Positions 1-11,130 of a stretch of DNA of 11,130 nucleotides are shown piece by piece (within the stretch, counting starts at the first letter, position 1; each line of letters starts with the position of its first letter). The notes under the pieces were generated by a model. It had not been told where the DNA came from, searched no databases, and was given only the letters and a program-made list of their open reading frames with translations. Origin of the DNA: a virus (Duplodnaviria > Heunggongvirae > Uroviricota > Caudoviricetes); the IMG/VR virus record IMGVR_UViG_2778261303_000003. One strand, written 5' to 3'. A program made the translations under genes and the position numbers.

Positions 1-135
1 ATGATTGAACAAATTAACATCGCTCTTGAGCAAAAAGGGTCCGGGAATTTCTCAGCCTGGGTCATTGAAGCCTGCCGTCGGAGACTAACGTCAGAAAAGA
101 GAGCATATACATCAATTAAAAGTGATGAAGAATGA
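1..135 (+). CDS. ylcI: YlcI-like small phage protein (DUF3950-type as I recall); 44 codons visible, probably 5'-partial because the window starts here
   Basis: Open frame from base 1 to TGA at 133-135, translating MIEQINIALEQKGSGNFSAWVIEACRRRLTSEKRAYTSIKSDEE; matches the C-terminal part of the DLP12 prophage YlcI as I remember it. Position beside ybcW/ybcV is consistent with DLP12 gene order. Confidence 0.55.
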   Translation: MIEQINIALEQKGSGNFSAWVIEACRRRLTSEKRAYTSIKSDEE

Positions 136-299
136 ACATCCCGCGTTCTTCCCTCCGAACAGGACGATATTGTAAATTCACTTAATTACGAGGGCATTGC
201 AGTAATTGAGTTGCAGTTTTACCACTTTCCTGACAGTGACAGACTGCGTGTTGGCTCTGTCACAGGCTAAATAGTTTGAATGATTAGCAGTTATGGTGA

Positions 300-506
300 T
301 CAGTCAACCACCAGGGAATAATCCTTCATATTATTATCGTGCTTCACCAACGCTGCCTCAATTGCTCTGAATGCTTCCAGAGACACCTTATGTTCTATAC
401 ATGCAATTACAACATCAGGGTAACTCATAGAAATGGTGCTATTAAGCATATTTTTTACACGAATCAGATCCACGGAGGGATCATCAGCAGATTGTTCTTT
501 ATTCAT
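300..506 (-). CDS. ybcW: YbcW-like small prophage protein, function unknown
   Basis: 68-aa ORF with ATG at 506..504 preceded by GGAG (7-nt spacer); translation [20 protein letters not shown]... matches the DLP12 YbcW family from memory. Confidence 0.8.
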
Positions 507-791
507 TTTGTCGCTCCATGCGCTTGCTCTTCATCTAGCGGTTAAAATATTACTTCAAATCTTTCTGTATGAAGATTTGAGCACGTTGGCCTTACATACA
601 TCTGTCGGTTGTATTTCCCTCCAGAATGCCAGCAGGACCGCACTTTGTTACGCAACCAATACTATTAAGTGAAAACATTCCTAATATTTGACATAAATCA
701 TCAACAAAACACAAAGAGGTCAGACCAGATTGAAACGATAAAAACGATAATGCAAACTACGCGCCCTCGTATCACATGGAAGGTTTTACCA

Positions 792-1202
792 ATGGCTCAG
801 GTTGCCATTTTTAAAGAAATATTCGATCAAGTGCGAAAAGATTTAAACTGTGAATTGTTTTATTCTGAACTAAAACGTCACAACGTCTCACATTATATTT
901 ACTATCTAGCCACAGATAATATTCACATCGTGTTAGAAAACGATAACACCGTGTTAATAAAAGGACTTAAAAAGGTTGTAAATGTTAAATTCTCAAGAAA
1001 CACGCATCTTATAGAAACGTCCTATGATAGGTTGAAATCAAGAGAAATCACATTTCAGCAATACAGGGAAAATCTTGCTAAAGCAGGAGTTTTCCGATGG
1101 GTTACAAATATCCATGAACATAAAAGATATTACTATACCTTTGATAATTCATTACTATTTACTGAGAGCATTCAGAACACTACACAAATCTTTCCACGCT
1201 AA
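792..1202 (+). CDS. ybcV: YbcV-like prophage protein (DUF1398-type as I recall), function unknown
   Basis: Long ORF 669..1202; I place the start at the ATG at 792 ([11 protein letters not shown]..., 136 aa) because it has a GGAAGG Shine-Dalgarno 8 nt upstream. The upstream GTG at 669 and ATG at 750 lack a ribosome-binding site. Confidence 0.8.
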
Positions 1203-1492
1203 ATCATAACGTCCGGTTTCTTCCGTGTCAGCACCGGGGCGTTGGCATAATGCAATACGTGTACGCGCTAAACCCTGTGTGCATCGTTTTTAATTATTCC
1301 CGGACACTCCCGCAGAGAAGTTCCCCGTCAGGGCTGTGGACATAGTTAATCCGGGAATACAATGACGATTCATCGCACCTGACATACATTAATAAATATT
1401 AACAATATGAAATTTCAACTCATTGTTTAGGGTTTGTTTAATTTTCTACACATACGATTCTGCGAACTTCAAAAAGCATCGGGAATAACACC

Positions 1493-1786
1493 ATGAAAAA
1501 AATGCTACTCGCTACTGCGCTGGCCCTGCTTATTACAGGATGTGCTCAACAGACGTTTACTGTTCAAAACAAACCGGCAGCAGTAGCACCAAAGGAAACC
1601 ATCACCCATCATTTCTTCGTTTCTGGAATTGGGCAGAAGAAAACTGTCGATGCAGCCAAAATTTGTGGCGGCGCAGAAAATGTTGTTAAAACAGAAACCC
1701 AGCAAACATTCGTAAATGGATTGCTCGGTTTTATTACTTTAGGCATTTATACTCCGCTGGAAGCGCGTGTGTATTGCTCACAATAA
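1493..1786 (+). CDS. bor: Bor outer-membrane lipoprotein (serum-resistance moron of lambda)
   Basis: 97-aa ORF MKKMLLATALALLITGCAQQ... with a lipobox (LITGC); essentially identical to lambda Bor as remembered; convergent with Rz as in lambda. Confidence 0.95.
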   Translation: MKKMLLATALALLITGCAQQTFTVQNKPAAVAPKETITHHFFVSGIGQKKTVDAAKICGGAENVVKTETQQTFVNGLLGFITLGIYTPLEARVYCSQ

Positions 1787-1792
1787 TTGCAT

Positions 1793-1818
1793 GAGTTGCC
1801 CATCGATATGGGCAACTC
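1793..1818. other. Perfect palindrome/hairpin (11-bp stem, 4-nt loop) between convergent bor and Rz
   Basis: GAGTTGCCCAT-cgat-ATGGGCAACTC read directly from the sequence; flanks are not T-rich, so it is not a classical intrinsic terminator. Confidence 0.5.
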
Positions 1819-2279
1819 TATCTGCACTGCTCATTAATATACTTCTGGGTTCCTTCCAGTTGTTTTTGCATAGTGATCAGCCTCTCTCTGAGGGTGAAAT
1901 AATCCCGTTCAGCGGTGTCTGCCAGTCGGGGGGAGGCTGCATTATCCACGCCGGAGGCGGTGGTGGCTTCACGCACTGACTGACAGACTGCTTTGATGTG
2001 CAACCGACGACGACCAGCGGCAACATCATCACGCAGAGCATCATTTTCAGCTTTAGCATCAGCTAACTCCTTCGTGTATTTTGCATCGAGCGCAGCAACA
2101 TCACGCTGACGCATCTGCATGTCAGTAATTGCCGCGTTCGCCAGCTTCAGTTCTCTGGCATTTTTGTCGCGCTGGGCTTTGTAGGTAATGGCGTTATCAC
2201 GGTAATGATTAACAGCCCATGACAGGCAGACGATGATGCAGATAACCAGAGCGGAGATAATCGCGGTTACTCTGTTCAT
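1818..2279 (-). CDS. Rz: Rz i-spanin (inner-membrane spanin subunit)
   Basis: Translation [45 protein letters not shown]... is near-identical to lambda Rz; the ATG at 2279..2277 overlaps the endolysin stop (ATGA). Confidence 0.95.
1877..2059 (-). CDS. Rz1: Rz1 o-spanin (outer-membrane lipoprotein) embedded in the +1 frame of Rz
   Basis: 60-aa [63 protein letters not shown] with a lipobox (VVGC) and proline-rich core; lies entirely inside Rz, as in lambda. Confidence 0.9.
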
Positions 2280-9536: not shown

Positions 9537-9773
9537 GGTGAGAATCGCAGCAACTTGTCGCGCCAATCGAGCCATGTCGTCGTCAACGACCCCCCATTCA
9601 AGAACAGCAAGCAGCATTGAGAACTTGGGAATCCAGTCTCTCTTCCACCTGCTGATCTGCGACTTATCAACTCCCACAGCTTCCGCTGTCTTCTCAGTTC
9701 CAAGCATTGCGATTTTGTTAAGCAACGCACTCTCGATTCGTAGTGCCTCGTTGCGTTTGTTTGCACGAACCAT
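9480..9773 (-). CDS. cII: CII transcriptional activator (lysogeny establishment)
   Basis: Translation from the ATG at 9773: MVRANKRNEALRIESALLNKIAMLGTEKTAEAVGVDKSQISRWKRDWIPKF..., matching lambda CII over its length. Confidence 0.97.
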   Translation of the reverse strand: MVRANKRNEALRIESALLNKIAMLGTEKTAEAVGVDKSQISRWKRDWIPKFSMLLAVLEWGVVDDDMARLARQVAAILTNKKRPAATERSEQIQMEF

Positions 9774-9852
9774 ATGTAAGTATTTCCTTAGATAACAATT
9801 GATTGAATGTATGCAAATAAATGCATACACCATAGGTATGGTTTAATTGGAT

Positions 9853-9885
9853 GCCCTTTTTCAGGGCTGTGATGTGTAAGAGCGG
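9853..9885 (-). promoter_or_regulatory. nutR site (boxA and boxB) for N-dependent antitermination
   Basis: On the - strand: CGCTCTTACACA (boxA) followed by GCCCTGAAAAAGGGC (boxB hairpin), between cro and cII. Confidence 0.85.
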
Positions 9886-9891
9886 TGTTAT

Positions 9892-10092
9892 TTATGCTGT
9901 TGTTTTTTTGTTACTCGGGAAGGGCTTTACCTCTTCCGCATAAACGCTTCCATCTGCGTTTATAGTTAAAAAAATCTTTCGGCCTGCATGAATGGCCTTG
10001 TTAATCGCGCTTTGATATACGCCGAGATCTTTAGCCGTCTTGGTTTGCCCAAAGCGCATTGCATAATCTTTCAGGGTTATGCGTTGTTCCAT
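9892..10092 (-). CDS. cro: Cro repressor
   Basis: 66-aa [69 protein letters not shown], matching lambda Cro; AGGAGG Shine-Dalgarno upstream. Confidence 0.97.
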
Positions 10093-10192
10093 AGAACCTC
10101 CTTAGTACATGCAATTATTATCACCGCTAGAGGTAAAACAGTCAACACGCACGGTGTTAGATATTTATCCCTTGCGGTGATAGATTTAATGT
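10093..10192. promoter_or_regulatory. Right operator OR1-OR2-OR3 with divergent pR (towards cro) and pRM (towards cI)
   Basis: 17-bp operator-like sites at 10119-10135 (OR1-like, TATCACCGCTAGAGGTA), 10143-10159 (OR2, CAACACGCACGGTGTTA) and 10166-10182 (OR3, TATCCCTTGCGGTGATA); pR -35 TTGACT and -10 GATAAT readable on the - strand; cI starts essentially leaderless. Confidence 0.85.
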
Positions 10193-10906
10193 ATGAGCGC
10201 AAAAAAGAAACCGTTAACACAAGAGCAGCTTGAGGACGCACGTCGCCTTAAAGCTATTTATGAAAAAAAGAAAAATGAACTTGGCTTATCTCAGGAATCT
10301 GTCGCAGACAAGATGGGGATGGGGCAGTCAGGCGTTGGTGCTTTATTTAATGGTATCAATGCATTAAATGCTTATAACGCCGCATTGCTTGCAAAAATTC
10401 TCAACGTTAGCGTTGAAGAATTTAGCCCTTCAATCGCCAGAGAAATCTACGAGATGTATGAAGCGGTTAGTATGCAGCCGTCACTTAGAAGTGAGTATGA
10501 GTACCCTGTTTTTTCTCATGTTCAGGCCGGGATGTTCTCGCCTGAGCTTAGAACCTTTACCAAAAGTGATGCGGAGAAATGGGTAAGCACAACTAAAAAA
10601 GCCAGTGGCTCTGCATTCTGGCTTGAGGTTGAAGGTAATTCCATGACCGCACCAACAGGCTACAAGCCAAGCTTTCCTGACGGGATGTTAATTCTTGTTG
10701 ACCCTGAGCAGACTGTTGAGCCTGGTGATTTCTGCATAGCCAGACTTGGTGGTGACGAGTTTACCTTCAAGAAACTGATCAGGGATAGCGGTCAGGTGTT
10801 CCTACAACCACTAAACCCACAATACCCAATGATCCCATGCAATGAGAGTTGTTCCGTTGTGGGGAAAGTTATCGCTAGTCAGTGGCCTGAAGAGACGTTT
10901 GGGTGA
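10193..10906 (+). CDS. cI: CI repressor (lambda-type, with a few substitutions relative to canonical lambda as I recall it)
   Basis: 237-aa [73 protein letters not shown]... with the LexA-like C-terminal domain (Ala-Gly cleavage site, Ser/Lys dyad region). Confidence 0.97.
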
Positions 10907-10956
10907 TGATAAGTCGCCGAGATGCTCGTAGAGCATACAGCGATGCAGGAGAATTT

Positions 10957-11004
10957 ATGGCACTTAATTTAGAAAGAATATCTTTTATAACCCCATTTGG
11001 GTAA
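10957..11004 (+). pseudogene. Start of an ORF with a strong Shine-Dalgarno downstream of cI, cut off after 15 codons by IS1
   Basis: AGGAG-aattt-ATG at 10946-10959; translation MALNLERISFITPFG then TAA, a stop supplied by the IS1 terminal repeat. It could instead be a fortuitous intergenic ORF. Confidence 0.3.
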
Positions 11005-11130
11005 TGACTCCAACTTATTGATAGTGTTTTATGTTCAGATAATGCCCGATGATTTTGTCATGCAGCTCCACCGATTTTGAGAACGACAGCGACTTCCGTC
11101 CCAGCCGTGCCAGGTGCTGCCTCAGATTCA
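10999..11130 (-). mobile_element. insB: IS1 insertion sequence, partial (right inverted repeat and 3' end of insB; continues beyond the window)
   Basis: GGTAATGACTCCAACTTATTGAT at 10999-11021 matches the IS1 terminal inverted repeat; the following 110 bp match the IS1 right end from memory with one mismatch. On the - strand this encodes the InsB C-terminus ...HYQ with stop at 11017..11015. Confidence 0.88.

Follow-up and report, generated by a model that had tools for sequence, protein, structure and literature searches.

A lambdoid mosaic of an already known type joins lambda-like immunity and replication genes to a QuuD-porin-pinholin-endolysin arm

Module shuffling among lambdoid phages and cryptic prophages is textbook knowledge, established decades ago, and the classical lambda qsr' recombinants arose in the laboratory by DLP12-type rescue. 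In phage 434B, about 5.5 kb comprising Q, the late promoter and the lysis genes was exchanged in the laboratory for a DLP12 segment (PMC9119081). Three families of the late antiterminator Q, those of Q21 (PF06530), Q-lambda (PF03589) and Q82 (PF06323), have no obvious mutual sequence similarity (PMC9388147), and phage mEp332 is reported, from experiment, to belong to the immunity group of lambda (PMC3442831). Here we compare such systems with an 11,130-nucleotide (nt) stretch of DNA from a virus of the Caudoviricetes (IMG/VR record IMGVR_UViG_2778261303_000003), referred to over its whole length as the window. It is a right arm, starting ~260 bp in from the right cohesive end and running to the immunity region, so that the rightward early and late genes lie on the minus strand. 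It is 100% identical to positions 4035–15164 of the draft contig DAYTAC010000064.1 (GCA_043369155.1; hereafter the identical contig), from which it presumably derives and which runs beyond the window through cos into Nu1-A-W-B, with 98.1% identity to lambda, and terminates inside IS1.

We find that the window very probably represents the right arm of a natural temperate prophage of the lambda family, of the ev243/mEp332 kind, that became mosaic through standard modular exchange. Genes were mapped from an open reading frame (ORF) listing, a Pfam scan (E≤0.01) and tblastn against six references (lambda, DLP12, phage 21, ev243, mEp332 and 434B); recurrence was counted in 5,426 complete Escherichia coli genomes, with at least 80% of the window covered in one place as the criterion, and patchiness was assessed by chi-square heterogeneity of mismatch counts in 200-nt bins. 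An earlier note on this DNA had described a lambdoid mosaic in which lambda immunity and replication genes are joined to a non-lambda nin-Q-lysis arm, and both the lambda blocks and the gene families agree with that description.

Lambda DNA aligns with the window in three blocks only, at 1–2279 (99.74% identity), 6355–6521 (ninE, 95.2%) and 7049–10907 (98.4%). All end at gene boundaries, namely the Rz start/endolysin stop (2279/2280), the edges of ninE, the ninB stop/methylase start (7049) and the cI stop (10907), and identity to lambda drops at the boundaries from 99.7% to no alignment, far beyond chance. The proteins that had been read as near-lambda (those of cI, cro, cII, O, P, ren, ninB, Rz/Rz1 and bor) are indeed 97.0–100% identical to their lambda counterparts. 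The non-lambda interval, ~4.8 kb in all, holds the genes for a Dam methylase, NinE, NinX, the ybcO remnant, rusA, ylcG, Q, a porin, a pinholin and an endolysin. A recombination joint had been proposed between ninB and the methyltransferase gene, and lambda homology does stop there, at 7049; a second, between Rz and the endolysin gene, is a boundary relative to lambda (2279/2280), but in wild E. coli prophages the identity continues through it without a break.

The best match to the window changes along its length:

1–2279: many wild E. coli genomes, 100% (lambda, 99.74%)
2280–4830: a degraded DLP12-like cryptic prophage of E. coli 74-2, 99.5%
4831–7060: E. coli RM14721, 99.6%
5957–7971: phage ev243, identical
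6731–10999: E. coli 2013C-3264, 99.53%
9839–10818: phage mEp332, identical

Moreover, a defective prophage of avian pathogenic E. coli (APEC) O78 is identical to 1–2605 except for one base, and E. coli 74-2 to 964–3872, again except for one base. Mismatches are heterogeneously distributed against every reference (p from 1e-10 to 1e-143), and runs without a mismatch are longer, by a factor of 2.5 to 8, than uniform divergence predicts. For every junction there are nonetheless independent complete records with a near-identical tract running across it, and E. coli CEA224S gives a single high-scoring segment pair (HSP) over 1–9885 at 96.8%. No single independent reference of uniform identity was found, as the earlier note had anticipated for a local mosaic; the best colinear ones, ev243 (97.8%) and CEA224S (96.8%), are both strongly heterogeneous. 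The gene order recurs in the phages ev243 and mEp332 as well as in ev099 and 2G7b, which likewise rank among the best matches to the whole window; of the 5,426 complete E. coli genomes, 62 have it. The several recombination joints claimed within 11 kb stand, then, as discontinuities against lambda, but were overstated as peculiar, the architecture being shared by a widespread lineage. The window belongs to a known lineage and is at the same time mosaic on a fine scale, the mosaic being of an already known, ordinary lambdoid type, real but unremarkable. As for the late genes, a DLP12-type lysis-porin segment occurs at ≥80% coverage in 2,319 genomes and the lambda-type Q-S-R in 636 of 5,426; lambda Q-S-R and the set of QuuD, porin, pinholin and signal-anchor-release (SAR) endolysin are interchangeable alternative late modules, both common in E. 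coli.

How far the arrangement has been inherited is best seen in the nin region, which contains:

5302–5442, minus strand: ylcG, 89% identical to YlcG of K-12 (phrog_2705)
5439–5801, minus strand: rusA, Holliday-junction resolvase (PF05866), 97.5% identical to K-12 RusA
5801–6007, minus strand: recombination scar, made of a C-terminal remnant of ybcO/DUF1364 (to 5887), a linker and a 5' remnant of a P22-type ninF (from 5958)
6008–6349, minus strand: ninX (DUF2591; PF10765), 100% identical to ev243
6352–6528, minus strand: ninE of the lambda/21 type, with 92.9% identity to the lambda protein and 96.5% to that of phage 21, against only 50% to DLP12 NinE
6525–7052, minus strand: phage N6-adenine methyltransferase of the Dam family (PF05869, 218 bits), in the place of ninC, 100% identical to ev243 and 98.9% to 434
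7049–7489, minus strand: ninB (orf recombination mediator), 100% identical to lambda, whose homology resumes at 7049

In the scar, ninX is followed by the 5' stub of ninF, the linker, the 3' stub of ybcO and rusA. Translation in frame gives the ybcO remnant 29 codons, with stop codons upstream. Homology to DLP12 DNA extends no further than 5887, within this remnant, and 5958–6012 matches the junction of ninX and ninF in nin regions of the P22 type; the joint that the earlier note had placed at 5930–6007 was thus misplaced by ~40–70 nt. Because ev243, ev066, 2G7b, PhiR11_1 and Chlobot all have the same scar, at 98.5–99.2% identity, it is old and inherited. The replacement of ninC/ninD and of ninF–ninI had been rightly noticed: the methyltransferase gene occupies the place of ninC and ninD is absent, while NinX, the ybcO remnant, rusA and ylcG stand instead of ninF–ninI. 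An ORF at 5821–6015 (minus strand, 64 codons), which mEp332 and some assemblies list as a hypothetical protein, is probably no gene, having no Pfam or PHROG match and spanning the ybcO/ninF scar.

Beyond rusA and ylcG lie the late antiterminator, the porin and the lysis genes:

2276–2773, minus strand: SAR endolysin of the RrrD/R21 type (PF00959, 155 bits), 97.6% identical to RrrD and to R21
2773–2988, minus strand: class II pinholin/antiholin of the EssD/S21 type (PF04971, 'P21 holin S', 121 bits), 100% identical to EssD and 85.9% to S21
2989–3561, minus strand: AT-rich spacer (~33% GC), putatively regulatory from its composition and a terminator scan
3562–4644, plus strand: intact porin of the nmpC/lc family, 360 residues (PF00267, 509 bits), 98.9% identical to the ev243 porin and ~90% to K-12 NmpC
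4833–5216, minus strand: late antiterminator Q of the QuuD type, Q21 family (PF06530, 181 bits), 99.2% identical to QuuD and 29.6% to Q21

Q had been called QuuD/82-like. It is of the QuuD type, but the likeness to phage 82 did not hold up: Q covers positions 1–118 of the 118 in the PF06530 model, a family that Q21 itself matches (87 bits), whereas PF06323, the Q82 family, is not matched, the Pfam scan at E≤0.01 giving PF06530 only. Among PDB entries, phmmer retrieved only Q21 chains (6JNX and 6P18, E=7.6e-8), and no literature was found that links quuD with phage 82. The Q families reportedly show no obvious mutual similarity, yet Q is detectably similar to Q21. As judged from Pfam, PDB and the literature on Q families, no phage 82 record having been identified for direct alignment, Q lies outside the Q82 family and is a distant member of the Q21 family, where QuuD-type Q proteins are to be filed. 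Late expression would accordingly run, by homology, through a QuuD-type, Q21-family antiterminator in place of Q-lambda.

The lysis genes fit what the earlier note had said of them, an S21 pinholin and a SAR lysozyme rather than the lambda R transglycosylase. The pinholin begins MKSM..., a dual start at Met1/Met4, and the endolysin has a Gly/Ala-rich N-terminal SAR segment (residues 8–25) and shows no similarity to lambda R. It aligns with R21 over all 165 residues at 97.6%, so that the numbering of R21 applies, and E35, D44 and T50 are present; we take these three to be the catalytic triad, as in R21. Judged by homology to characterised proteins, lysis would follow the phage 21 route, with pinholin and SAR endolysin replacing the S105 holin and R transglycosylase of lambda, and would be completed by the lambda-type Rz/Rz1 spanins. 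The arm is not simply of the DLP12/phage-21 type: nothing in DLP12 corresponds to the half with the methylase, ninE and NinX, and the identity of Q to Q21 is only 29.6%. Module shuffling shows directly in the endolysin, whose exact protein is encoded in thousands of assemblies, joined to at least four different immunity/replication/nin/cargo architectures.

The immunity and replication genes, in turn, are of the lambda type:

7563–7853, minus strand: ren, 99.0% identical to lambda
7850–8551, minus strand: P, 99.1% identical to lambda
8548–9447, minus strand: O, 99.3% identical to lambda
9015–9099, minus strand: four ori iterons within O, with zero mismatches to lambda inside them and mismatches at 9081 and 9100 reported just outside the iteron coordinates
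9480–9773, minus strand: cII, 100% identical to lambda
9852–9868, minus strand: nutR, in the nutR/tR1 region between cII and cro, with no mismatch to lambda
9892–10092, minus strand: cro, 100% identical to lambda
10119–10182: right operator (OR), OR1-OR2-OR3, with PR and PRM; OR2 and OR3 identical to lambda
10193–10906, plus strand: cI repressor of the lambda immunity group, 97.0% identical to lambda cI and 100% to mEp332 cI
10957–10999, plus strand: first 14 codons (5') of a gene of unknown function in the place of rexA; 10880–10999 matched at 100% in E. coli genomes
11000–11130, minus strand: end of IS1 (terminal inverted repeat GGTAATGACTCC...), 99.2% identical to IS1A in E. coli ECO2947; DDE_Tnp_IS1 was called on the identical contig

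OR1 (10119–10135) differs from lambda by a single C>T change (TATCACCGCTAGAGGTA), shared with mEp332, and the −35 and −10 hexamers of PR are intact. The window thus has the cI and Cro specificity and the tripartite OR of lambda immunity, as well as an O with four iterons and the P helicase loader of lambda-type replication. Because mEp332, with identical cI, cro and OR, shares lambda's immunity group, immunity and early control should be those of lambda: cI, Cro and OR would confer lambda-group immunity, with CII, nutR, O/P and ori likewise of the lambda type. In the same early region, rutA and rutB carry two substitutions each relative to lambda (9832–9884).

Past cI, rexA and rexB are absent from the window, and the gene in their place is cut by IS1 at 10999|11000; this partial IS1 (11000–11130) and the intact porin between Q and holin are two items that had gone unmentioned in the earlier note. 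In 51 complete E. coli genomes the post-cI locus is uninterrupted, and two genes, of 144 and 200 residues, fill the space between cI and N. Their only matches are to PHROGs of unknown function (phrog_5893 and phrog_5820), since PADLOC returned none and Pfam none of significance. Occupying the rex slot, the two may form an exclusion cassette not yet characterised.

In the account we favour, a lambda-family prophage of the ev243/mEp332 kind shaped by modular exchange, homologous recombination in shared flanks (ninB/ninE; Rz-bor-ybcV-ybcW-ylcI-cos) would swap functionally equivalent cassettes, the partners being co-resident lambdoid phages and cryptic prophages of E. coli. The illegitimate joint of ninX, ninF remnant, ybcO remnant and rusA would be old and inherited by the whole lineage, and later short patches resembling gene conversion would have left each relative a patchwork of 100% and 80–96% tracts. 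We found no evidence contradicting this explanation, and could reject contamination with lambda DNA or a laboratory lambda derivative, the immunity-replication region being 1.6% diverged overall and 3–4% around cI and the non-lambda 4.8 kb matching wild phages. Another origin, in which a lambda-immunity phage recently took Q, porin and lysis genes in one step from a DLP12-like cryptic prophage of its host, would suit the 99.5% identity of 2280–4830 to the degraded DLP12-like prophage of E. coli 74-2 and the essential identity of 1–2605 to the defective prophage of APEC O78, and 434B offers a laboratory precedent (PMC9119081), as a case in which recombination could put a DLP12 block in the place of the Q-lysis region that a lambdoid phage had before. 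Yet the methylase, lambda/21-type ninE, NinX and truncated ybcO are unlike DLP12-like prophages, which have ybcN, a DLP12-type ninE and a full ybcO; the immunity region is 3–4% diverged from lambda; and the full arrangement, with the 5801–6007 scar, is already present in the free-living ev243, mEp332, ev066, 2G7b and PhiR11_1, and hence inherited, not new. Such a one-step event is therefore very improbable, although rescue from DLP12-like prophages may account for individual patches. That the prophage is a recently formed natural counterpart of 434B, with its late/lysis arm or patches of it rescued from DLP12-family cryptic prophages of the host, seems unlikely, if a little less so; were it true, the exchanges marked by the tracts identical in the defective prophages of APEC O78 and E. 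coli 74-2 would be so recent that they could be dated, and traced in the host population.

It could also be asked whether lambdoid repeats of one genome were fused into a chimeric contig, given that the window is identical to a 15,263-bp draft contig, DAYTAC010000064.1, ending inside IS1, and that parts of the window match at a median of 15 places per E. coli genome. Tracts of 99.5–100% identity that span every junction in independent complete genomes or isolated phages, and the same end-to-end order in 62 complete genomes, make an artefact of this sort extremely unlikely. What weighs against the favoured account of a natural ev243/mEp332-like prophage lies elsewhere. The late promoter PR' was not located, a scan of 2900–4900 for the sigma-70 consensus yielding 0 sites against 4.9 expected by chance; the contig stops in IS1 93 nt past cI, the N/PL region and the remaining prophage lying beyond; the functions of its genes are taken from homology, being presumably those of the characterised homologues; and the direction and timing of the exchanges, whose history we infer, cannot be read from these comparisons.

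The cos-proximal end comprises:

1–135, plus strand: 3' part of ylcI (DUF3950), 100% identical in protein to lambda and DLP12, with its start upstream of the window
300–506, minus strand: ybcW/lambdap79, 100% identical in protein to lambda and DLP12 (phrog_657, function unknown)
669–1202, plus strand: ybcV/lambdap78 (DUF1398; PF07166, 157 bits), 98.9% identical to lambda; RefSeq-style start at 792
1493–1786, plus strand: bor serum-resistance lipoprotein, 100% identical to lambda Bor and 96.9% to BorD
1818–2279, minus strand: Rz i-spanin, 99.3% identical to lambda, whose DNA homology ends at 2279
1877–2059, minus strand: Rz1 o-spanin, embedded in Rz, 100% identical to lambda

The complete ylcI is found at 3975–4169 of the identical contig. 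At least 15 wild E. coli genomes carry segment 1–2279 at 100.0% identity, and in 264 records it is matched at ≥99%. It is a common wild allele which lambda also happens to carry; the cos-proximal 2.3 kb of lambda is not lambda-specific and circulates unchanged in many wild prophages.

Next to this segment, 2606–2926, across the endolysin N-terminus and the holin C-terminus, has ~34 dense substitutions relative to APEC O78 but is identical in E. coli 74-2, and over 2601–2800 identity to DLP12, ev243 and phage 21 is only 88–90%. The substitutions in the holin are all synonymous, since its protein is unchanged, and the patch looks like a gene conversion from a diverged allele.

In the spacer upstream of the holin gene, an 11-nt repeat, TTATTTGTTG(G/A), occurs as two tandem copies at 3281–3260 (minus strand). 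Downstream of it, ~125 nt upstream of the holin start, is a strong GC-rich hairpin with a T-run (3133–3112, minus strand). The hairpin is a candidate late terminator (tR') and the repeat a candidate Q-related site; direct comparison with the PR'/QBE region of phage 21 (QBE, Q binding element) revealed no nucleotide similarity.

The porin gene is oriented convergently with the late genes. It is a distinct allele, whose nucleotide identity to DLP12 falls to 78–86% over 4001–4600, a divergence typical of surface-loop diversification. Porin and bor, each with its own AT-rich flanks, are two morons, presumably of lysogenic conversion. Between the convergent Q and porin genes, 4650–4800 holds several strong hairpins (e.g. 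GGGGCGTTGAAACGCCCC and TGTTGGGGAGGCAAAGCCTCCCACAACA) that look like bidirectional terminators. The small RNA IpeX of DLP12 presumably lies at the Q-porin intergenic region in K-12; a scan of the whole window with Rfam at gathering thresholds matched no family. At other loci the identical endolysin-holin-Rz-bor cassette stands beside other cargo instead of the porin, namely a lipocalin, a 2-thiouracil desulfurase-like gene, an AraC regulator and sometimes an IS200-type transposase, and the cassette also adjoins at least four different modules of immunity and replication.

Beyond correct annotation the window is of little importance, and its interest is as a clean, well-resolved case of lambdoid modular exchange, as comparison with the named phages and prophages makes plain. 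With lambda (NC_001416.1) it shares immunity, cII, O, P, the iterons, ren, ninB, ninE, Rz/Rz1, bor, lambdap78/79 and the cos-proximal end, whereas ninC, ninD, ninF, ninG, ninH, ninI, Q-lambda (PF03589), S and R of lambda have no counterpart in the window; conversely, lambda has no porin gene, and its rexAB are not in the window. Phage 21 (OL657228.1) resembles the window in its dual-start S21-type pinholin, SAR endolysin (97.6%), Rz/Rz1 (98%) and O, P, ren, ninB and ninE (96.5–100%), and its Q is also of PF06530. It differs in Q (29.6%), holin (85.9%) and cI (34%, another immunity), in keeping ninF and ninG with only a fragment of ninH, and between Q and S, where it has two tRNA genes but lacks a porin; its tRNA genes after PR' are absent from the window, in which ARAGORN identified no tRNA or tmRNA.

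DLP12 (the qsr' region) is colinear with the window from ybcO (3') to ylcI, at 95.5% over 1–4586 and 97.6% over 4603–5887, and its late module corresponds gene for gene (Q 99.2%, holin 100%, endolysin 97.6%, Rz 96.1%, Bor 96.9%). Its nin genes do not, the window being without ybcN, a DLP12-type ninE and an intact ybcO. Moreover, nmpC of K-12 is split by IS5, at a position corresponding to 4586/4603, whereas the porin of the window is unbroken and a different allele, and DLP12 is without functional immunity and replication genes.

The free-living phages come closer. mEp332 (PV340541.1) aligns over 1436–10902 at 96.9% with the same right-arm gene order, and its cI, Cro and OR are identical, within a 980-nt identical tract (9839–10818) that includes the OR1 C>T change. 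It differs in its porin (89.6% identical, 365 versus 360 residues), in being without ybcV and ybcW, and downstream of cI, where homology ends at 10902 and it has a gene annotated with a GspM domain. ev243 (Nesevirus ev243, NC_049955.1/LR597639.1) is likewise without ybcW and ybcV, leaving 153–1435 of the window unaligned save for an 83%-identity patch at 1270–1380, and its cI is followed by rexA and rexB instead of the different, IS1-interrupted gene of the window; its Bor is 91.8% identical, its immunity region 95.5–98% and its cI 97.5%. Nonetheless, it matches the window in one HSP over 1436–10907 at 97.8%, with the genes from bor to cI in identical order, a tract of 2,015 nt without mismatch (5957–7971), a porin 98.9% identical, and Q, holin, Dam methylase, NinX, NinE, NinB, Cro and CII all 100% identical.

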